A DNA stretch of 63,346 nt, filler included, from Stramenopiles sp. TOSAG23-6 (lineage: Eukaryota), in assembly GCA_900128565.1 (NCBI GenBank). It is 20 parts of 20 records of this genome, joined end to end, with 100 filler letters (N's around TTAATTAATTAA, not from the genome) between each part and the next. Parts side by side here need not be neighbours in the genome. Positions count along the whole stretch, not along the records: positions 9,584 to 12,670 come from LT637658.1; 19 more parts are not named here. One strand, given 5' to 3'. This document shows positions 6,103 through 40,726 of this stretch, in pieces. Below the pieces are notes generated by a model that did not search any database, had not been told where the DNA came from, and saw only the letters and a program-made list of their open reading frames with translations. Made by a program: the position numbers and the translations under genes. Within the stretch, counting starts at the first letter, position 1, and the number at the start of each line of letters is the position of its first letter.

Positions 6103-6478
6103 TTTTGATTTCGTGTTATAACGGCCGAAAAGCGCCGTAAAATAGAAGAAAAAAAAGAAGACATAAACGTAGGCAGACACAGGTGATTTCGCGGAGGAGA
6201 GTATACTTATTATGCTATAAATAATGCGATGAGGAAAGTTAAGAGGGAGAGTAATTTGAAGCAAGACTTGGCGGCTTCGAGAATACAGGCANNNNNNNNN
6301 NNNNNNNNNNNNNNNNNNNNNNNNNNNNNNNNNNNTTAATTAATTAANNNNNNNNNNNNNNNNNNNNNNNNNNNNNNNNNNNNNNNNNNNNAAAAAAAAA
6401 AACTTAAATTCGTTAGGTACAAAATTTCGTACGAAAAAAAAATCGATTTTTTTGGTAAAAAAAATAAATAAAACATAC

Positions 6479-8942
6479 ATCCTTTCGTCCTTATCAAGCT
6501 TTGCAATTAATGTATGAGATACTGTAAAATCGTTCTCAGACATCACATGAGGTTTCATTACATCAGTTTCATTTAATAATTGAATAGTGAGTGGCAGTTT
6601 GTAAATTTTCTTTTTTGGTTTTTTTGTTTTCTTTGGTTTTTTTGGTTTTTCGATCTTTTCCGTGTTTTCATCATCTTTTGTAGATGACTTTTCTTCATCA
6701 TCATCATCATTAGCATCTTTTGTAGATGACTTTTCTTCATCATCATCATCATTAGCATCTTTAGTAGATGACTTTTCTTCATCCTCATCATCATTAGCAT
6801 CTTTAGTAGATGACTTTTCTTCATCATCATTATCATCATCATCATTATCTTTAGTAGATGACTCTTCTTCATCAACAACATCTTCAACAGGTAAAATTTC
6901 TTCAAAGATTGCCTCTGCCTTTACAAGTCCTACAAGACCATTTTCATCAAGAAAAAAACTTAAATTAATTTTTGGCTCATCCAAATTTGAATATTTTTCA
7001 TCTTTCAATAAATCTTCAAGTCCAGATACGTCATATAGAGCAATGTCTTTGGCCGTACCTTCAGGAAGACTAAAGACTTTTGATGTATCGTAACGAAGCT
7101 TACATGTGAAATCAGAAGAATGTTTAAATTGTACTAATTTTCTAGAGACAAGTTTGTTGTTTCGTTTGAATAAAGTAGTACGTTTTGACCATATCTCAGG
7201 ATTAGGATTAGCCTCTGAAATATCTTCCATATCAGTGGGTAGTTTGTCTGCCAGACGAACGCCAACAGCAAAAGGTAAAATATCTTGCATGCCAACATGT
7301 TTTGTGAAAAAATATTTTTTTTTTTTTTCCGGTAAAAAATTTGTTAGGTACAAATTTTTTTGAAAAAAATAAATAAATTCGAAATTGAAAAAAATAAATA
7401 AATTCGAAATTGAAAAAAAAATAAATAAAACATACATGTCTCACACGAAATGCTTTAGATCGATTGGCTGCGTGAAACGCTGCACCCAAGGCCATCCCTT
7501 CATCTCCGTTGATATGCACAGCTAAATGCGTTGTATTTAAATGTTCTCTAAGCATTTCTTGAATTTTTGGAATGCGCACAGAACCACCAATGATTTCAAC
7601 CTCATCAACATCATTCACATCAATTCCTGCATCTTCTAAAACACGGTCTATAGGTTTCATAGCTTGAGCTAAATCTGCAGCAATTTTTTTTTCAAACTCT
7701 CTGCGAGTAATGACAAAACCACGTAAATCTTTATCTTTGTCCACACTCTCAATAAACACTGGGATTCTTTCATTTGCAGACAAAACTTCTTTGGTCTTTG
7801 TTGCTTGTTTTTGTATTTTAGCCCAAGATCTAGGTACGGTACGGACATCGTAATCAGGAAATTTTCCATTTTTGTTGACTACATTTGTATTAAACTCATC
7901 AGCAATCATGTTGGCAATGGACTGATCAAAATACGACCCACCAACNCCNTCTTCCCAGTGTTTTGATATTATCTCAAANTGAGANGAGACGACTTCTTTA
8001 CCTAATCGTTTTGTATTACGTGCTGTATAATAGGCAAGTGANGCTTGAACACTATTCGCACCCATATTGTAAAACAAAACACGATGNGTTTTGTTTTCGT
8101 ACGTACGATCAATCCCGTATTGTACGGCGGCTGCCGTGTTTTCATCAATTAACGAAATTACGTTTAATTTCGCGACTTTAGATGCATCGATTAAGGCACG
8201 CTTTTCCGTCTGTGTGAAAAAGGAAGGGACAGTGAGTACAACGTCATTAATTTTGGCATTCGCTTCTGCTTCGCCAATTTGTTTTGCATAGATCAAAATC
8301 ATGCCCATAATTTCTTCGACACTGTATTCTTCAGGCATNGAGACGTCATCAGAATGTTTTGATTCATAGAATGTATAGAGATATTAACGAGTTGTATATT
8401 GATAAGAAACAGGGAAATGGTCTCTGAAAAGTGTAAAAAGGAAAAAATATTTCACAGTTCTTTCTAATTTTTGCTTAGGTACAAAATGTCATACGACAAA
8501 AACAATATGGATTGGAATTAGGGTTAGGGTAACGTACGTCATACAAAGAGTTCTTGATTCGAAGAGAACCACGGGTATCATCTTCCACCAAAGTATGGTG
8601 AGACAAGAAAGTTTCAGATACTTTCCTAGTTATTGGATGAGTACTGTTACGTCCAAGCAAAGTGCGTGCAAATGTAAATGTTTGCAAAGGTTTACGCGTC
8701 ATCAAATTCTTTGCATCACCCGCAAACTGGCGAGCATTTTCATCATTAAATGCCATTGCAGTCTCTGTTTTACGCTTTGATGCTGTATTGGTAACAATTG
8801 TAAATGGATTGCCCGGTTTCACCAAAGCTACTTTAAAAAATAAAGAACCTAGATCAATACCAAGGACTAGAGCGGACGTCACGTGAAACGAAGATGCAAA
8901 CAGCAAAAGTGACATTACGAATGTTCTAATAGAGAAACGCAT
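6479..8942 (-). CDS. HYOU1: ER Hsp70-family chaperone HYOU1/GRP170, 3'-partial, copy 1
   Basis: Signal peptide, VLGIDLG, VVLTVPSFF, IIGGSVRIPKIQ, INGDEGMALGAAF and an acidic repeat region. Intron 7297-7435 (GT..AT) joins FRVRH|VGMQD. Confidence 0.9.
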
Positions 8943-9312
8943 GTTAAATGACTATTGTAGAGATATCTGAAAGACAAAAGTTTGATCGTTTGACGCGTCT
9001 ACTTCTGTTGGTGATACTAAATGAATGTAAGCTGCAGAGAATAAAATATAATGTTTGTAAGACTGAAATTACTTGCTTGCGGTTCTCGAGAGGAACTCAT
9101 CTGAGATGAACAACAAAACTGTTTGGTTTTGCGACGTGGCCAAAAAAAACAATATAAGCAGGTTTGTGCATTTAAAAAAAATCCAAAATAACGGCTACAA
9201 TCTAGATATGTCCACGGGTATCTAGCTAGCTAGGTATATCTTATCCGAATAACGGTTATCTACACCGTACAGTATCATTTCAAGAAAATAAATCTAAAAG
9301 ATTTCAAAAAGA

Positions 9313-9483
9313 ATGAAGAAGGTTATATCATTAAGCTTTGCTGCAGCAAGCGTACACGCATCAGGATCTGCAATAACTCCTCGTGAACTGGTTCTTGGAA
9401 ACCCCCAATGGAATGTCCTTACGAATACGTTTAATGAGAACTTTAACTCTAGCACGGAATACCGTACTCTAATGGCTCGTCTG
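9313..9483 (+). CDS. Hypothetical protein N-terminus, divergent from HYOU1 (repeated at 28399-28569)
   Basis: ATG-initiated open frame running into the linker, with a hydrophobic start. Confidence 0.4.
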
Positions 9484-9633
9484 NNNNNNNNNNNNNNNNN
9501 NNNNNNNNNNNNNNNNNNNNNNNNNNNTTAATTAATTAANNNNNNNNNNNNNNNNNNNNNNNNNNNNNNNNNNNNNNNNNNNNTGTTTTTAGTACTCAAA
9601 AAAAAAAAAAAAAAATTTTTTTTCACAATGAAT

Positions 9634-10231
9634 GAGTGATGCTGACTCTATTCCTCCTCTTCGAGCTCGAACTCGTCATTTTGATGGCTCACGTCCATCA
9701 AGTCGTCATGGTGAAGAGGGCCACGAAGAACTTTTATTCAAGACACTTGAATCCCTACGACAAATTTCTAAAGAAGAAGGTATCAGTATGACAAATTTGT
9801 ACGTTTTCAATCATTACAGTACATTCACAAGAAAAAAAAAATCCTACGAAATTTCATACCTAACAAATTTTGAATTTTTTTTTCTAAAAATATTTTTTTA
9901 CATCACTTGGCGCTATCTTTTCCCTTAGCTACAAAGGCTGTGTGTAGTGTTGTCGCAGGAGCAACAAAAGAAAATCATTTGACATGTACGTTTTCAAAAT
10001 TGAATTTCAAATTTATTTTTTTAGAAAATTTTGTAGTAACGAATGATTTTTTCTAAAAAAAAAAAAAATATATATATATTTTCAAACAATACATCGAATG
10101 TCGCTGGCGTTGGAACAAAATTAACACCAAATTTACTTCAAAAATTGCAAAAGGCTACAGAAAAGTTGAAAGATGCAATGGGGAAGAATTGTGATGTATG
10201 GCAAGGAAAAGGTAATAGTCGCATTCGATAG
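9634..10231 (+). CDS. Aldo-keto reductase C-terminal part; introns 9799-9908 and 9986-10094
   Basis: Spliced GISMTNLALSFPLATKAVCSVVAGATKENHLTSNV matches the AKR pattern (xxLALxxxL...V.SV+.GA....HL..N). Confidence 0.7.
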
Positions 10232-11299: not shown

Positions 11300-11841
11300 A
11301 TGTTAATTCGCTCTCTCCAATCGATAGTTTCTCGCACTCGCCATGTTTCAGCGAAACGTGGGTTTGCATCCGCCTCTACTACGTCGACAATAACTCCGCC
11401 AACTTCAACGTCTCATGAAAAGATGAAGTCAGACAAACGCTATAAAAAGGTTACTGTTGTCCCAGATTCTTTGACTGAAAATGCTCCACAGGAAGCGTTT
11501 TCTATCAAGGGTCAATTTCTTGATGGACGACCTGCATATCTTGATGCTCAGGCAACAACTCCACTTGATCCACGTGTATTAGAAGTGATGATGCCTTACA
11601 TGGTTTCACAGTATGGAAATCCACACTCACGGACACATTCATACGGTTGGGAAGCTGAAGCTGCCGTTGAAAAAGCTCGTGGTCAAGTAGCTGATTTAAT
11701 TGGATGTACCTCAAATGAAATTGTATTTACTTCAGGGGCAACAGAATGTAATAATATGGCAATTAAAGGTGTCGCTCGATTTTACTCGAAGCGTAAAAAG
11801 CACATAGTAACTACTCAGACGGAACACAAGTGTACGTTTTC

Positions 11842-11872
<31 letters not shown>

Positions 11873-12606
11873 GTCCACAATTTTTTGCCAAACGAATTTT
11901 TTTTTTTCCAAAAAAATTTACCGAAAAAAAAAAAAAAAAATATTTTTTCACGGTATATGTGTCCTTGACTCTTGTCGAATCTTGGAGCAACAAGGATTTG
12001 ATATTACATATTTGCCTGTCAAAGAGAACGGTTTAGTCGATCTAGGTGAGCTCGAAGCAGCCATTCGACCAGGCGAGACTGTTCTCTGCTCTGTTATGGC
12101 AGTTAATAATGAAATTGGCGTTGTCCAACCCTTGAAGGAAATTGGAGCACTTTGCAGAAAAAATAAAGTTTTTTTTCATACTGATGCCGCTCAAATGGCG
12201 GGAAAAATGAAAATTGATGTTGATGAACTTAATATTGATTTAATGTCAATCAGTGGGCATAAGTTATATGGACCAAAAGGTGTTGGAGCTTTATATGTGT
12301 AGGTTTTTAGTACTCATTGTATACTATTTTGTTTTTGGTCATTTTTTTTTCAATTTTTTTTTCAATTTTTTTTAGATTTTTTTTTTTTGTAATTTTTTTC
12401 ATAGTAAATTTTGTACCTAACAAAAAATAACAAAAAAAAAATATTTTTCACAATATAGACGTCGACGACCAAGAGTGCGTTTGGAAGCCATAATCAATGG
12501 TGGTGGTCAAGAGCGAGGTCTTCGCAGTGGTACTTTGCCACATCCTTTGATTGCTGGTTTGGGTGAAGCAGCTGAAATTTCAAGTCAAGAAATGGAGAGA
12601 GATCAT
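11300..12606 (+). CDS. NFS1: Mitochondrial cysteine desulfurase, 3'-partial; introns 11832-11958 (GT..AT) and 12299-12458 (GT..AG)
   Basis: Transit-peptide-like start, [58 protein letters not shown]. Confidence 0.95.
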
Positions 12607-13114
12607 GTACTTTTTTTTTTTCTTCAATTTAAAAAAAAATTTCATACGAAATTTCGTACCTAACGAATTTNNNNNNNNNNNNNNNNNNNNNNNNNNNNNN
12701 NNNNNNNNNNNNNNTTAATTAATTAANNNNNNNNNNNNNNNNNNNNNNNNNNNNNNNNNNNNNNNNNNNNCTGGTGGTTTAAGTCCAGGAGAATACGTTC
12801 GTCTTTCAAAACAAAGTGATCAAAACGCTGTAGTAGAAATGAATTCAGCTTTGTCTTTAAAAGTATGTAAAGGTTTAACGTATAGAAAGAACAAGGATAA
12901 AGATATAAATGGAGACGAATTTTGCAGAATAGTATGGAAAGGTCATTTACACTAATAAAGAAATCCAAGATAGTATTGCTTTATTGTTACCAGTTTCATT
13001 TTTTAACTATAAATAGTAAATCATATCATGGTTCAGAAAAAGCAGCAATTGAGCTTAAATTTTATTTTTTTCCCACTGTGTACAAATAGAGAAGTTTCAC
13101 TTTGAGGCGAGTAT

Positions 13115-15956: not shown

Positions 15957-18025
15957 AACTTTTTACTCGTGCACAAAACAGATTTCTCAAATTACAAATT
16001 CATTCTTCTAGTGAATTATGTACTGTATGTTTTCAGGATCAATTTAAATTTATTTATATTTTTATAAAAATTTTGTACCTAACAAAAAAAATGAAAATAT
16101 TTTCCTACAATACATACTAATAAAGGCAATGAGAATACTATTTTAAAAGTGATTGACTGGGGCACAGAACCAGATGTAGATTCAATTCTTATTGAACAAA
16201 ACAATAGTGACATTCAACTTGTAAAATTATTACATGTTTGGCTTGAGGGTGAAGGTGCTACCATTAGAGACAAATGTAGAATTTTTTTGAGACCGACAAA
16301 AAATGAAGAAATCCCATTACACCGTATCACAAATTCATGTATGTTTTATTTTTTTTTTCAAATTTGAATTTGTTTTCTTATGAAATTTTGTACCTAACAA
16401 TTATTTTTTTCAAATATTTTTCCAAAATACATAAACATCCTGGGGGAATCAGACATGACCATTCTCAAATATATGGAAGGATTGAACCATTATGTTATGA
16501 AGTGTATGTTTTATTTTATTTTTATTTCAATGTTGAATTTATTTTTCGTACACAATTTTGTACCTAACAAATTTGTTTTTGAAATATTTTTCCAAAATAC
16601 AAAACTTGTATTGGTAACGGCAACAAATGTTTGGTATTTACAGTGCCTGAATTTGGATCAAATGTTAGTAGATTGTTGCGAGACGATTTGGGTCGTGCCG
16701 GTGTTGTTCGCAGTGAATCAGAATTAAGAATATTTTGCTGGACTTCAGGTTTTCGCTTCCCAAAGCAGACTTCTTTTGAGAAATCTGAGTTCTATAAGTT
16801 GAGCAGAAAAACAACAGCACTTGAACTGACAGAACGATTTCGCGAAAGAGGCATTATTCCGAATGATGTTCAGTTCCTATGCCAAGGTAGTGTTGGTGGT
16901 AAAACAAGGGTCATTGGCCATGCTAGGTCAGCCTTTTTGTATGTTTTCATTATGAATTTCAAATGTATTTTATTTTCATACAAAATGTTGTACCTAAATT
17001 ATTTTTTTTATTTTTGAAATATTTTTTCACAATATATAAAAGATGGTGGAAGTAGAAAAGGCTTCGACATATTGCAAAATCATACGTCGGAAGAAACTTT
17101 CGATGGGCTTTGTGGAACACTTGTGCATCCGCATTTTGTAAAACTCGGACGTATGGGTGTGTACAAAGTGGCACTGGAAAGAGCACCCAACAAAGAGGAG
17201 TTTCGTAAGAAGTATCAAAAACTTTTGGATGAGTATGGTTTGGAAGAAGCCGGCAAATTTGCTAATGTTGTGGCATATGGATCATGTGGTGAAATTCTTA
17301 GTCAAAAGCACGTCAAATGTCATTATGACAAGGAAGGCAGCCTTTCTAGTGAAATTATCTGCACGAATACCGTCCAAGGTATACGTCTATGGACGAACTA
17401 TAAATGTGATAAATGTGGAGATTGGCATCGATCTCGTGTTGTAGTGCAAAAGACAACAAATAATGGTGTAGTATCCGCAAAAATTGGGTGTACTGTTCAT
17501 TGTAAAAAAACGAAAACTATTAAGTCATTTGATCATGCATATATTGAAAGAGTTCCCTTTCATTTTATCAATGAAGATTGTTTCAAAGGTTGTCGATGTT
17601 TTATTTGCGCAAATGAACATTCAGATAAACCTGTCAATATTGAAAAACCTAAGAAAAGAAGTAAAGGTACTCTCAGCATTGGAACAATTATAGAACTTGC
17701 TGATGCGAAACGTCTGAAACATATTGAAGATGAACATGAAAAGCATCCAAACAGGCAAAAAAAAACCCTCAAGCAAGAAAATCCTATAAGAGAAGATCTT
17801 ACACGTTTCGTAAAATGCACAAAAAATGGAGAACCAAATCTTACCCTAATCCAGTCTAGTTCAAAAGGTGATTTGATGGTGCGAATTGGTGGTAAACATG
17901 GTAAAACTATTGCAATCAGCGGAGTGAAAAATCTTGAAATGGTTCCGTTTTCGTGTCCTCGAGGTGAATCTTGTCCGTGTACATTTTGTGAAAGACGTCG
18001 TAACAACTTAAAAGAAGAAGACTGA
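15957..18025 (+). CDS. Multi-exon hypothetical Cys/His-rich protein, 5'-partial
   Basis: Four family introns (16025-16115, 16339-~16430, 16504-~16602, 16939-17037) connect the ORF segments. CxxC and CxC clusters in the last exon. Confidence 0.6.
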
Positions 18026-25395: not shown

Positions 25396-25582
25396 NNNNN
25401 NNNNNNNNNNNNNNNNNNNNNNNNNNNNNNNNNNNNNNNTTAATTAATTAANNNNNNNNNNNNNNNNNNNNNNNNNNNNNNNNNNNNNNNNNNNNAAAAA
25501 AAAAAACTTAAATTCGTTAGGTACAAAATTTCGTACGAAAAAAAAATCGATTTTTTTGGTAAAAAAAATAAATAAAACATAC

Positions 25583-28028
25583 ATCCTTTCGTCCTTATCA
25601 AGCTTTGCAATTAATGTATGAGATACTGTAAAATCGTTCTCAGACATCACATGAGGTTTCATTACATCAGTTTCATTTAATAATTGAATAGTGAGTGGCA
25701 GTTTGTAAATTTTCTTTTTTGGTTTTTTTGTTTTCTTTGGTTTTTTTGGTTTTTCGATCTTTTCCGTGTTTTCATCATCTTTTGTAGATGACTTTTCTTC
25801 ATCATCATCATCATTAGCATCTTTTGTAGATGACTTTTCTTCATCATCATCATCATTAGCATCTTTAGTAGATGACTTTTCTTCATCCTCATCATCATTA
25901 GCATCTTTAGTAGATGACTTTTCTTCATCATCATTATCATCATCATCATTATCTTTAGTAGATGACTCTTCTTCATCAACAACATCTTCAACAGGTAAAA
26001 TTTCTTCAAAGATTGCCTCTGCCTTTACAAGTCCTACAAGACCATTTTCATCAAGAAAAAAACTTAAATTAATTTTTGGCTCATCCAAATTTGAATATTT
26101 TTCATCTTTCAATAAATCTTCAAGTCCAGATACGTCATATAGAGCAATGTCTTTGGCCGTACCTTCAGGAAGACTAAAGACTTTTGATGTATCGTAACGA
26201 AGCTTACATGTGAAATCAGAAGAATGTTTAAATTGTACTAATTTTCTAGAGACAAGTTTGTTGTTTCGTTTGAATAAAGTAGTACGTTTTGACCATATCT
26301 CAGGATTAGGATTAGCCTCTGAAATATCTTCCATATCAGTAGGAAGCTTGTCTGCCAGACGAACGCCAACAGCAAAAGGTAAAATATCTTGCATGCCGAC
26401 ATGTTTTGTGAAAAAATATTTTTGTTTTTGTACAATTTGTTAGGTACAAAATTTTTTGAAAAAAATAAATAAATTCGAAATTGAAAAAAAATTTTGTTAA
26501 AAAAAAATAAATAAAAAATACATGTCTCACACGAAATGCTTTAGATCGATTGGCTGCGTGAAACGCTGCACCCAAGGCCATCCCTTCATCTCCGTTGATA
26601 TGCACAGCTAAATGCGTTGTATTTAAATGTTCTCTAAGCATTTCTTGAATTTTTGGAATGCGCACAGAACCACCAATGATTTCAACCTCATCAACATCAT
26701 TCACATCAATTCCTGCATCTTCTAAAACACGGTCTATAGGTTTCATAGCTTGAGCTAAATCTGCAGCAATTTTTTTTTCAAACTCTCTGCGAGTAATGAC
26801 AAAACCACGTAAATCTTTATCTTTGTCCACACTCTCAATAAACACTGGGATTCTTTCATTTGCAGACAAAACTTCTTTGGTCTTTGTTGCTTGTTTTTGT
26901 ATTTTAGCCCAAGATCTAGGTACGGTACGGACATCGTAATCAGGAAATTTTCCATTTTTGTTGACTACATTTGTATTAAACTCATCAGCAATCATGTTGG
27001 CAATGGACTGATCAAAATACGACCCACCAACNCCNTCTTCCCAGTGTTTTGATATTATCTCAAANTGAGANGAGACGACTTCTTTACCTAATCGTTTTGT
27101 ATTACGTGCTGTATAATAGGCAAGTGANGCTTGAACACTATTCGCACCCATATTGTAAAACAAAACACGATGNGTTTTGTTTTCGTACGTACGATCAATC
27201 CCGTATTGTACGGCGGCTGCCGTGTTTTCATCAATTAACGAAATTACGTTTAATTTCGCGACTTTAGATGCATCGATTAAGGCACGCTTTTCCGTCTGTG
27301 TGAAAAAGGAAGGGACAGTGAGTACAACGTCATTAATTTTGGCATTCGCTTCTGCTTCGCCAATTTGTTTTGCATAGATCAAAATCATGCCCATAATTTC
27401 TTCGACACTGTATTCTTCAGGCATNGAGACGTCATCAGAATGTTTTGATTCATAGAATGTATAGAGATATTAACGAGTTGTATATTGATAAGAAACAGGG
27501 AAATGGTCTCTGAAAAGTGTAAAAAGGAAAAAATATTTCACAGTTCTTTCTAATTTTTGCTTAGGTACAAAATGTCATACGACAAAAACAATATGGATTG
27601 GAATTAGGGTTAGGGTAACGTACGTCATACAAAGAGTTCTTGATTCGAAGAGAACCACGGGTATCATCTTCCACCAAAGTATGGTGAGACAAGAAAGTTT
27701 CAGATACTTTCCTAGTTATTGGATGAGTACTGTTACGTCCAAGCAAAGTGCGTGCAAATGTAAATGTTTGCAAAGGTTTACGCGTCATCAAATTCTTTGC
27801 ATCACCCGCAAACTGGCGAGCATTTTCATCATTAAATGCCATTGCAGTCTCTGTTTTACGCTTTGATGCTGTATTGGTAACAATTGTAAATGGATTGCCC
27901 GGTTTCACCAAAGCTACTTTAAAAAATAAAGAACCTAGATCAATACCAAGGACTAGAGCGGACGTCACGTGAAACGAAGATGCAAACAGCAAAAGTGACA
28001 TTACGAATGTTCTAATAGAGAAACGCAT
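25583..28028 (-). CDS. HYOU1: HYOU1/GRP170 copy 2 (alternative assembly path or haplotype of the 6392-9483 contig)
   Basis: Same sequence and same N positions as copy 1, except around intron 26401-26521. Confidence 0.88.
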
Positions 28029-28669
28029 GTTAAATGACTATTGTAGAGATATCTGAAAGACAAAAGTTTGATCGTTTGACGCGTCTACTTCTGTTGGTGA
28101 TACTAAATGAATGTAAGCTGCAGAGAATAAAATATAATGTTTGTAAGACTGAAATTACTTGCTTGCGGTTCTCGAGAGGAACTCATCTGAGATGAACAAC
28201 AAAACTGTTTGGTTTTGCGACGTGGCCAAAAAAAACAATATAAGCAGGTTTGTGCATTTAAAAAAAATCCAAAATAACGGCTACAATCTAGATATGTCCA
28301 CGGGTATCTAGCTAGCTAGGTATATCTTATCCGAATAACGGTTATCTACACCGTACAGTATCATTTCAAGAAAATAAATCTAAAAGATTTCAAAAAGAAT
28401 GAAGAAGGTTATATCATTAAGCTTTGCTGCAGCAAGCGTACACGCATCAGGATCTGCAATAACTCCTCGTGAACTGGTTCTTGGAAACCCCCAATGGAAT
28501 GTCCTTACGAATACGTTTAATGAGAACTTTAACTCTAGCACGGAATACCGTACTCTAATGGCTCGTCTGNNNNNNNNNNNNNNNNNNNNNNNNNNNNNNN
28601 NNNNNNNNNNNNNTTAATTAATTAANNNNNNNNNNNNNNNNNNNNNNNNNNNNNNNNNNNNNNNNNNNN

Positions 28670-32572: not shown

Positions 32573-34853
32573 ATGGCAACATCTGTACAAAAATATAGTC
32601 AAATTGAACTACCACCACGTCTTACTGACGTACTCCGGTTAGTTCTAACAAATAGAGGAGTTCCCGTTGATATCAGTGGTGAATTTGATGCACGGCTTCG
32701 GCTATTTTCTAAGAGACAGGCAATGCCATCTACTGATTCTTTCACGTGGTCTTTTTTCTCACGTATGCGTTCTTCTCTTGCCCCAGTTCAAACACGTACC
32801 GAACAACAAAAGATTCGCGAAAAATTTGCAATGTTTGTCAAACTATCTGGACAAGCAGTTGGTGATGATGGAGAAAGTTTTGGAATAGCAAGTGTTGCAG
32901 CAAAGACAATACTACGAATTGCAGTGCGTTCCATTACAAATACCTTCACACGTTTTCAAATAAAAGCTCTAATATCAAAGGAGTTTGATATTATTTATGA
33001 TTATAATAAGATAGAAAATGCATTAAAGGTCGGGAGAGAACTGTATGAATGGCTTCAATCAAGTTCGTCAACTCTACGAAAGGATATATTCCGAGATAAT
33101 ACACAATTTGGACAAGATATTGAAATTGCCACCGCGAGTGATAGTATTAGTTTACCCATACCTCGACATCTTTTAAGAACAACAAACACTGCGACATCTA
33201 AAAGTTCATTTGATAAAATTAGTTCTATTGGAGTTGGCACTCAGAAAATTCGAAATTCCGTAGGTAATTCCAGTACAAAAAACAAAAAAAACATTTCGAA
33301 TTTGCCAAGTTCTACCCCTCTGTCTGGTTCTAATCAAAATATCAAAGCAGACGCTCAGTGGCTAGTATGTGTTTGTGAGCAACACCTTGCTATAGCAGAA
33401 TCATCTGGGAATTTTGATGGGACAAATATTTGGACTGCACAGACATTAGCTGAGCAAGTTATTTCTCTTTTTCGTTCTGATTCTGATGATAGTCAATTAC
33501 AAGCTGATCTTTTTGGCCTTTTCGGCGTTGCAGGATTTGATACTATCGCCGAACTATTTCAAAGAAAAGACGAAATTGTTGACATTAACTTAAATGAATT
33601 ATTCATATATTCTACACAAAATGTACGAAATTCCGTACCTATTTCCGTATCTAAAGGTCCACATATTGGATTACGTGTCACTTCAAAAGCAGAGAAAAAT
33701 GCTGAGAAACAAGAAAGAAAACGTTCTCGTCGTTTTGGTAGGCACATGAATGCACAATCCAAAAACAATCAAGTTCATATGAATAGTGGGAGTAGTCTTC
33801 TTCAACATCTTGGTTTCTCTGAAGAATATTTAGATGAACAGCACGCGTTAGGTTTGAAAACTTTATCTAAATCTCGTACGTTTTCATTTCAAGTTCGAAT
33901 GTAGTTTTCTTTTTTTATAGTAAATTTTGTACCTAACAAACTTTAATTTTTTTTTTAAATATTTTTTCTAAAATAGGTGCAGATCAAGGTGTCAGTTTAC
34001 GTAAAAGAATGGGACTGGGTAAAGCTTTTATTGGTAAGCATAACACTGGACTACCACCGGGCACTATACGACAGCAATTCAAAGGATATGAAGAAGTTCG
34101 TGTGCGTTTTTAGTATGACTATTTTTGTCTTTTTTGTTTTCATACGAAATGTTATACCTAACGTTTTTTATTTTTTTTTGAAATATTTTTCGCAGTTCAT
34201 GTCCCTGCTTTGCAAGCACGTAAAAATGAACAGGAACGATCTCCTGTTCTAATAAATTCCTTACCTGAATGGGCACAACTAGCATTCAAAAATACAAAAT
34301 CCTTGAATAAGCTACAATCTGCGTTATTTAACGTTGCTTTTGAATCTAGTCGCAACATGCTTGTATGTGCTCCCACTGGTGCTGGTAAAACAAATGTTGC
34401 AATGCTAACAATATTGCGAGAAATTTCCCTCCATATTCAAAATTCCAAAATTGAAAAAAATGATTTTAAGATTGTATATGTTGCTCCGATGAAAGCTTTG
34501 GCTCAGGAAGTAGTCACAAAATTTTCTCAGCGTTTGAAATCCCTTGGTATCAAAGTTGCTGAGTTGACCGGGGATATGCAAATGACAAAAAAAGAAATTT
34601 CTGAAACGCAAATAATGTATGTTTTATTTTTGTTTCAATTTCGAATTTATTTTTTTATAAAAAATTTGTACCTAACGAATTTTTTTTTGAAATATTTTTC
34701 CAAAATGCATTGTAACTACACCTGAAAAATGGGATGTCATTACACGAAAAGCAGGGGATGGCTCTTTAGTGGAAAAATTACGACTCCTAATTATCGACGA
34801 GGTGCACTTACTAGCTAGTGACAGAGGGGCTGTTATTGAAGTTTTAGTGGCAC
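32573..34853 (+). CDS. ASCC3: Ski2-like helicase ASCC3/Slh1, 3'-partial; introns 33876-33976, ~34102-34200, 34617-34710
   Basis: [64 protein letters not shown]. Confidence 0.82.
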
Positions 34854-40625: not shown

Positions 40626-40726
40626 GTATGTTTTATTTTTTTTCAAATTTGATTTTTGTTTCGTACGAAATGTTGTACCTAANANTTTTTTTTAGATTTT
40701 TTTTGAAATATTTTTTCAAAATACAT

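Follow-up and report, generated by a model that had tools for sequence, protein, structure and literature searches.

Nearly all spliceosomal introns end with AG, and both bases, A at intron position -2 and G at -1, are read directly in the catalytic centre. Whether either of these bases is needed is the question raised by a 110-nt stretch in the genome assembly of Stramenopiles sp. TOSAG23-6 (GCA_900128565.1), which interrupts an aldo-keto reductase gene, starts with GT and, in the register set by its donor, ends with TT. It occupies positions 9799-9908 of the DNA analyzed here (63,346 nt, hereafter the window), a chain of twenty contigs of ~3.1 kb that are linked by N-TTAATTAATTAA-N and show many single-N positions and a GC content of ~33%. 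The contig concerned (9584-12670, LT637658.1) is present in seawater metagenomes and metatranscriptomes and begins inside an upstream intron at 9584, so that only about the last 126 residues of the reductase are present.

In the most likely interpretation, the stretch 9799-9908 belongs to a family of short spliceosomal introns that look mobile (introner-like) and are now found across many genes of this marine protist with its AT-rich DNA. The family carries a strong U2-type donor, a branch motif and a conserved tail, and its members would end at the last base of that tail, usually with AT and sometimes with AG. The 3' end appears to depend on the tail as a unit, or on its position, rather than on whichever AT or AG comes first past the branch site. 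The flagged copy appears to have inserted in a leucine codon of a conserved helix of the reductase and would still be removed at the same position, as a GT...TT intron, yielding a normal protein. That the cell splices this copy at TT and so obtains a normal reductase is a prediction in which we have about even confidence, and the TT end is a single unconfirmed case. New in this analysis are the first copy of the family without A at -2, a member ending with AG that is confirmed by RNA, and a negative outcome for the idea that the intron end is a duplicated target.

Limits of the inserted DNA in the reductase gene

When the exon upstream of the flagged intron (exon a) was used in a word-based search, three full-length proteins of the family PF00248 were retrieved, with identities of 80%, 65% and 64%. 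By tblastn, exon a matched residues 240-294 of one homologue, P0004, with 80% identity and an E value of 7e-31, and in an alignment with the same protein exons a, b and c, all three of them open, were 70-79% identical. The exon translations (P0001, P0002 and P0003) tile three PF00248 homologues without gap or overlap, as judged by tblastn and multiple alignment, and the leucine at the junction is encoded by TT|G. Single exon translations on their own, being too short, gave no Pfam match, and searches of the PDB with single reductase exons gave chance matches only. The alignments identify the host gene as an aldo-keto reductase (PF00248). Among longer proteins the search with exon a found relatives of 64-80% identity only and no fragment from the same species, and the open frame 9874-10053, compared with proteins of near length, likewise revealed no same-species fragment across the intron end.

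A scan of metagenomes for relatives returned 22 loci, none of them closer than 65% identity. Seven were examined; all are continuous across the junction and none has an intron at the site. No gene structure is annotated for the proteins P0005 and P0006, which seem to be encoded by uninterrupted reading frames. Joining AAT TT to G GCG CTA, as had been proposed in the initial annotation, gives a protein that aligns without insertion or deletion at the junction with each of the 10 homologues examined, the three proteins and the seven metagenome loci. As the metagenome loci examined have no intron at this position, the insertion is, judged by sequence comparison, recent and lineage-specific. In one metagenome relative (L003) an ordinary GT-AG intron is found at a different position.

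All pairs of a first base between 9740 and 9834 and a last base between 9840 and 9959 were also tried as cuts, and the products were scored against three homologues. Among the 2766 open in-frame products, a score of 764 goes to the 110-nt removals that leave the homologue sequence unchanged, and a protein of homologue length is restored by no removal length except 110 nt. The top score, 767, is reached by the register 9801-9910 (AC..GG), in which the Ala after the junction Leu becomes Ser. Four equivalent registers (TT..AC, TG..CT, GT..TT and TA..TG) give an identical mRNA, an ambiguity of the boundary that arises because TTG stands at both ends. None of the four ends with AG or AT, and with the GT donor of the family the end is TT. 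The best pair of GT or GC with AT or AG is 9803-9903 (score 725), which adds two residues and uses a donor four bases off the family consensus, and the pair 9799-9893 (score 719) adds five. The comparison establishes the exact limits of the inserted DNA, with an end at 9908 that corresponds in position to the AT end of other copies.

The landmarks on which the initial annotation had relied are in place. GT at 9799-9800 lies within an exact family donor (GTACGTTTTC) and is preceded by TT (9797-9798), the stretch ends with ...CATCACTT at 9908, and this end falls 14 nt (9895-9908) past ATATT (9890-9894). The nearby CAT (9901-9903) is indeed out of phase with the GT donor, and the pair is missing from the open in-frame products. 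Compared with canonical U2-type introns, the flagged copy has the GT donor, with a consensus that fits U1/U6, and lacks the 3' AG.

In the model of P0004 (mean pLDDT 80, pTM 0.83, block pLDDT 89-93 at the junction), the junction falls in the middle of helix 291-300, just before a barrel strand, so that rival in-frame acceptors would insert residues into that helix. This modelled position speaks against the in-frame alternatives that add two or five residues. A related strain, represented in DNA run X3, has three differences in exon a, two of them synonymous and one a change of Q to K at a variable position (codons read by eye). With its exons open and conserved and these differences mostly synonymous, the reductase gene looks alive.

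Two of the metagenome relatives have peculiarities of their own. In locus L006 (19-1095) there are 6 TAA and 2 TAG codons in frame, P0004 having Q and M at the two readily comparable positions, and TGA stands directly after the match; the organism probably decodes both TAA and TAG as an amino acid, like many ciliates. Locus L010 (312-791) has 23 additional in-frame residues within the conserved WPL... segment, over which the identity is 46%, and these surplus residues are probably the read-through of an unrecognised intron in a more distant relative.

A repeated intron family with a conserved 3' tail

Copies of the family were found in the window by scans with the branch motif and the tail, followed by curation. 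This yielded 33 complete copies in addition to many more matches to parts of the intron; two of the copies represent one locus on two contigs with 99.1% identity. All 33 copies begin with GT, and their last two bases are AT (25 copies), AG (6), AA (1) and TT (1, the flagged copy). The donor is GTAYGTTTT, in which positions +3, +5 and +6 are conserved in the 32 copies counted, and it fits the yeast-type consensus GTATGT. At up to one mismatch the donor motif occurs 19 times in the window, with 4.6 occurrences expected, and none of 100 shuffles reached 19. The branch motif is TACCTAAC, and the tail of ~20 nt consists of ATATT, a T run and CAMAATAYAT. When the ends are placed according to the consensus, removal links stop-free stretches of at least 30 codons on either side in 27 of the 33 copies, and shifting the 3' end by 1-2 nt reduces this number to 6-9. 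No family of Rfam was detected in the window.

The end of the tail does not appear to be chosen as the first suitable dinucleotide. As the distance from branch motif to intron end ranges over 19-93 nt, no ruler acts from the branch site; an earlier YAT lies between branch motif and end in 30 of the 32 copies (an earlier YAG in 3). In tails ending with TATAT, the overlapping TAT two bases upstream is unused, which in an intron of the cysteine desulfurase gene is exact by homology. The initial annotation had suggested selection by position, a suggestion that agrees with the many copies that skip an earlier YAT, as does selection by the tail motif. The tail seems to be the constant feature of these introns and fits a choice of the 3' end by position or by motif.

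The flagged copy carries all of these signals (Table 1). There is no AG between its branch motif and 9908, and its tail is collinear with other tails without insertion or deletion, 16 of 19 bases matching the copy 62806-62628 (read by eye); of its three substitutions one is the change of A to T at -2. For the last 20 nt a position profile was built on the other 31 copies. Without its last two positions, this profile peaks at 9908 with 14.4 bits, versus 9.5 bits at 9895 and 8.4 bits at 9893, and when applied to three control introns it has its maximum at the end that is set by homology or RNA. The comparisons demonstrate both the gene structure and that the flagged copy is a member of the family.

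Control introns are available on the same contig. The exons around the cysteine desulfurase intron 11832-11958 match PDB chain 8tvt_A up to residue 106 and from residue 108 onwards, residue 107 being supplied by the split codon, and none of the registers permitted there ends with AG. The second intron of the reductase (9986-10094) has an exact junction by homology, and its allowed registers include GT..AT. Homology thus proves, for these two predicted introns, ends other than AG. For a further desulfurase intron (12299-12458), which ends with AG, a contig from the polyA RNA run X7 (record 21) continues unbroken from 12259-12298 to 12459-12606 and departs from the genome at 12606, directly before the next GT donor at 12607. 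The AT-ending copies are probably spliced at the end of the tail as well. A register of AT-AC was considered for the family and ruled out, as the desulfurase intron 11832-11958 does not permit it.

Some features of individual copies were recorded along with the survey. In three of them, 34102-34200 (+), 40626-40726 (+) and 35313-35187 (-), a YAG lies between the branch motif and the AT end and is passed over according to the reading frame. The exon base before the donor (position -1) is T in 30 of 32 copies and never the usual G, and the base preceding it is A in 19 of 32; the bias for T could reflect a target preference or an unusual donor context. The inverted repeat at the element ends is only ~4 nt long (GTAT/ATAC), with 2-5 of 6 possible pairs, the flagged copy having 2 of 6. 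Copy 16504-16602 (+), in which CAA occupies the consensus end position, links 65 open codons to 138 and has an in-phase TAT 9 nt downstream; its host gene showed no Pfam family and no homologue among longer proteins or in a library of 1.84 billion proteins. Removal of copy 16339-16432 (+), a GT...AT intron, puts TAA across the junction (T|AA) after 81 open codons; either splicing completes a stop codon here or the cut falls at a different acceptor. The contigs 6392-9483 and 25496-28569 are the pair that carry the same locus twice, with 99.1% identity over 3.09 kb, 9 mismatches and 7 gaps; the family intron measures 139 nt in one (7435-7297) and 121 nt in the other (26521-26401), and the pair may represent two alleles or cells, or a redundant assembly.

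Table 1. Coordinates of the introns, exons and signals on the contig that carries the flagged intron
Feature	Positions	Strand	Remarks
Upstream family intron, 3' part	9584-9633	+	Contig starts within the intron; end at 9633 (...CACAATGAAT, probable) or at 9629 (...CACAAT), both AT
Aldo-keto reductase exon a	9634-9798	+	Ends AAT TT, 2 bases into the Leu codon
Flagged intron, copy of the repeated family, predicted GT...TT	9799-9908	+	110 nt; homology and family signals
Donor GTACGTTTTC	9799-9808	+	Exact family donor
Branch-site-like motif CATACCTAAC	9855-9864	+	Family consensus TGTACCTAAC; 46 nt ahead of the 3' end
Internal tail-like stretch ending ...CTAAAAATAT	9875-9893	+	In-phase rival acceptor
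Family 3' tail module (ATATT, T run, ACATCACTT)	9890-9908	+	Ends CTT; CAT or TAT in other copies
CAT	9901-9903	+	Out of phase with the GT donor; frame reaches a stop within a few codons
Aldo-keto reductase exon b	9909-9985	+	First G completes the Leu codon (G GCG CTA)
Reductase intron 2, family copy, GT...AT	9986-10094	+	109 nt; homology; profile peak at 10094, 16.2 bits
Aldo-keto reductase exon c	10095-10231	+	Stop codon 10229-10231
Family intron in the cysteine desulfurase gene	11832-11958	+	Registers by homology TG..TA, GT..AT, TA..TG, AC..GT; none AG
Family intron ending AG in the cysteine desulfurase gene	12299-12458	+	RNA contig shows exact removal

At the left edge of the contig the upstream exon lies outside the window. 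The homologues read W-S-D-A-D after the upstream intron, and a split TG|G codon at 9634 would therefore fit.

Choice between the possible 3' ends

Several observations weigh against splicing at the TT end. A stands at -2 in 31 of 32 copies, so the flagged copy is an exception and could be a defect; the tail positions adjoining -2 are about as conserved (constant in 28-30 of 32), and conservation alone therefore cannot show selection on -2. No joint across an AT-ending intron is present among the joints listed from the RNA runs, contigs of RNA run X6 continue from exon into intron at 11832 and 12299, and the runs X6, X7 and X8, seen at the level of contigs, give no cover on the reductase exons, the depth at 9790-10098 in the runs coming from other copies of the repeat. 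The predicted fold of the flagged copy has no helix able to measure the cut site and leaves the tail unpaired. Among six copies that were folded (z-scores -0.3 to -2.6), three close their ends by a weak stem of 3-4 bp that leaves two bases free, which the flagged copy does not do. The full tail profile gives 9908 and 9893 the same score, 11.1 bits each, and the listed pieces of DNA run X3 cover 9686-9841 and 10089-10190, with position 9907 outside. The rarity of another base at -2 also favours the view that the change of A to T damaged the acceptor, leaving the transcript unspliced or diverting the cut to the out-of-phase CAT at 9903, which is the first YAT past the last T run. The sequenced cell or cells would then carry an allele of recent origin, null or weak, for a reductase that is probably not essential. 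The flagged copy was selected from dozens, so that a rare deleterious variant is not improbable among them, and expression of the reductase was not seen in three RNA runs, although missing cover in contig-level data proves nothing. All three exons are nevertheless intact and well conserved, the differences in the X3 strain are few and mostly synonymous, and two further substitutions in the tail suggest that the copy is not brand new, yet the frame has not decayed; we regard a damaged acceptor as rather unlikely. Quite unlikely, in our judgement, is splicing from 9799 to the in-phase AT at 9893, which was overlooked in the initial annotation and would remove 95 nt and keep the last 15 nt as five residues, in which case the AT rule would hold and the A at -2 would not be dispensable. 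The product is in frame and stop-free; ahead of the site stand a T run and CTAAAAATAT, resembling the tails of the copies 48821-48653, 35313-35187 and 33876-33976, and the full-profile score of the site equals that of 9908. This tie is broken in favour of 9908 when the last two positions are left out, the homology score of the 9893 product stays below that of the 110-nt removal, and none of the 10 homologues has an insertion here, where the five residues would come to lie in the middle of the modelled helix. Moreover, the splice end is the element end in all other copies. In the sister intron 9986-10094 a matching internal stretch (T run, CTAAAA..., ATAT) precedes the true tail, and homology puts the end at that tail and not at the upstream ATAT. 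By homology the inserted DNA of the flagged copy extends to 9908, which places the tail-like stretch that ends at 9893 inside it.

The remaining alternatives concern the origin of the two terminal bases. The T at 9907 might be an error of base calling or assembly, or a rare variant of a single amplified cell, the real end being an ordinary CAT. The window comes from a fragmentary assembly of ~3.1-kb contigs with many single Ns, and as mentioned the independent DNA pieces do not reach 9907; but a consensus seldom contains substitution errors, neither an N nor a sign of low quality occurs near 9907, the position is not within a long homopolymer run, and the two other substitutions in the same tail speak for a real divergence of the copy, all of which makes such an error very improbable. 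The initial annotation had offered, besides selection by position, an acceptor derived from a target-site duplication: the element would end with ...CAC and would have inserted at TT instead of the usual AT, and the spliceosome would cut two bases beyond the element. TT is found on both sides (TTG if the first G is included), the upstream dinucleotide equals the last two bases of the intron in 18 of 33 copies (17 of these 18 being AT/AT), AT stands directly before the donor in 19 of 33, and in many copies GTAT...ATAC at the ends of the element make up a short inverted repeat. A precedent can be seen in the introners of Micromonas, which according to PMC11282704 take one splice site from the duplicated target. 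This part of the earlier proposal fares poorly in the family, as 13 of the 14 copies with an upstream dinucleotide other than AT do not repeat it at the 3' end, and of the five copies with TT upstream three end with AT, one with AG and one with TT. Almost all copies have a T before the donor (30 of 32, and 5 of the 6 that end with AG), and the sole coincidence is the T at exon position -2, found in 6 of 32 copies, so that the match of TT with TT is weak evidence; a simple substitution of A by T in a collinear tail explains the data equally well. A duplicated-target origin is possible for the flagged copy and without general support in the family, and we hold it to be decidedly unlikely. Removal of the whole element from 9799 to 9908, with its TT end, is the reading that we prefer.

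Comparison with known intron systems

The family shares several properties with the introners of Micromonas pusilla and Aureococcus anophagefferens, which are described in PMC11282704 and PMC7789003 as many near-identical short introns in unrelated genes, with lineage-specific positions, splice signals brought by the element itself and short inverted ends. For Aureococcus, PMC7789003 reports canonical splicing motifs together with direct repeats and terminal inverted repeats of constant length. Unlike these, the introns of the family described here end with AT (once with TT), the duplicated target is inconsistent and the inverted ends comprise ~4 nt. Transposon-like, recently gained introns that depart from GT-AG and are handled by the U2-type spliceosome have been described in the tunicate Fritillaria borealis, with ends that include ...AT (Henriet et al. 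2019, as cited in PMC11282704). The common forms given there are AG-AC and AG-AT, non-canonical at the 5' side, whereas in the present family the GT donor is perfect and the 3' end alone departs from the rule. A literature search (supplements excluded) turned up no description of GT-AT or GT-TT introns from marine stramenopiles.

Amoebophrya is, like the host studied here, a marine protist with repeated non-GT-AG introns (PMC7789003). According to the same source, direct repeats overlap the intron boundaries, inverted repeats of 8-20 nt are proposed to bring the intron ends together, no terminal dinucleotide is preferred and U1 is missing. In contrast, the present family has GT in 33 of 33 copies and an AT or AG end in 31 of 33, and for the flagged copy no stable helix is predicted between its ends.

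An assignment to the U12-type introns was considered and rejected, since the 5' splice site (GTAYGTTTT), the branch motif (TACCTAAC), the distance from branch motif to 3' end and the T run do not fit; donor and branch motif were compared with the U12 consensus strings. What the U12-type introns have in common with the family is that non-canonical termini are tolerated and that the 3' site is chosen largely by distance (PMC3584512). They differ in a branch-to-end optimum of 11-13 nt and in having no polypyrimidine tract (PMC3584512), whereas the distance is 46 nt in the flagged copy and 19-93 nt in the family, and T runs are present.

Consequences for 3' splice-site recognition

A family of introns with AT ends is in itself out of the ordinary. 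If the flagged copy is spliced as we predict, we infer that the A at -2 is dispensable, and this TT-ending member would show that neither of the terminal bases is needed and that a longer motif borne by the element, or position, fixes the 3' cut. Taken further, the second splicing step might ignore the terminal dinucleotide altogether, with the ~20-nt tail, or a factor that binds it, placing the cut; AT, AG, AA and TT would all be used, and the mobile element would carry its own definition of the 3' splice site, independent of the sequence at the cut. We consider this broader proposal possible but doubtful. If the copy is not spliced, it would amount to a naturally occurring loss-of-function mutant showing the A at -2 to be essential. 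For annotation, gene finders restricted to GT-AG will break or mis-join genes that contain introns of this family. Provided that splicing takes place at TT, the locus would offer a natural test of how transposon-derived introns become spliceable and of how far the recognition of the 3' splice site can drift.

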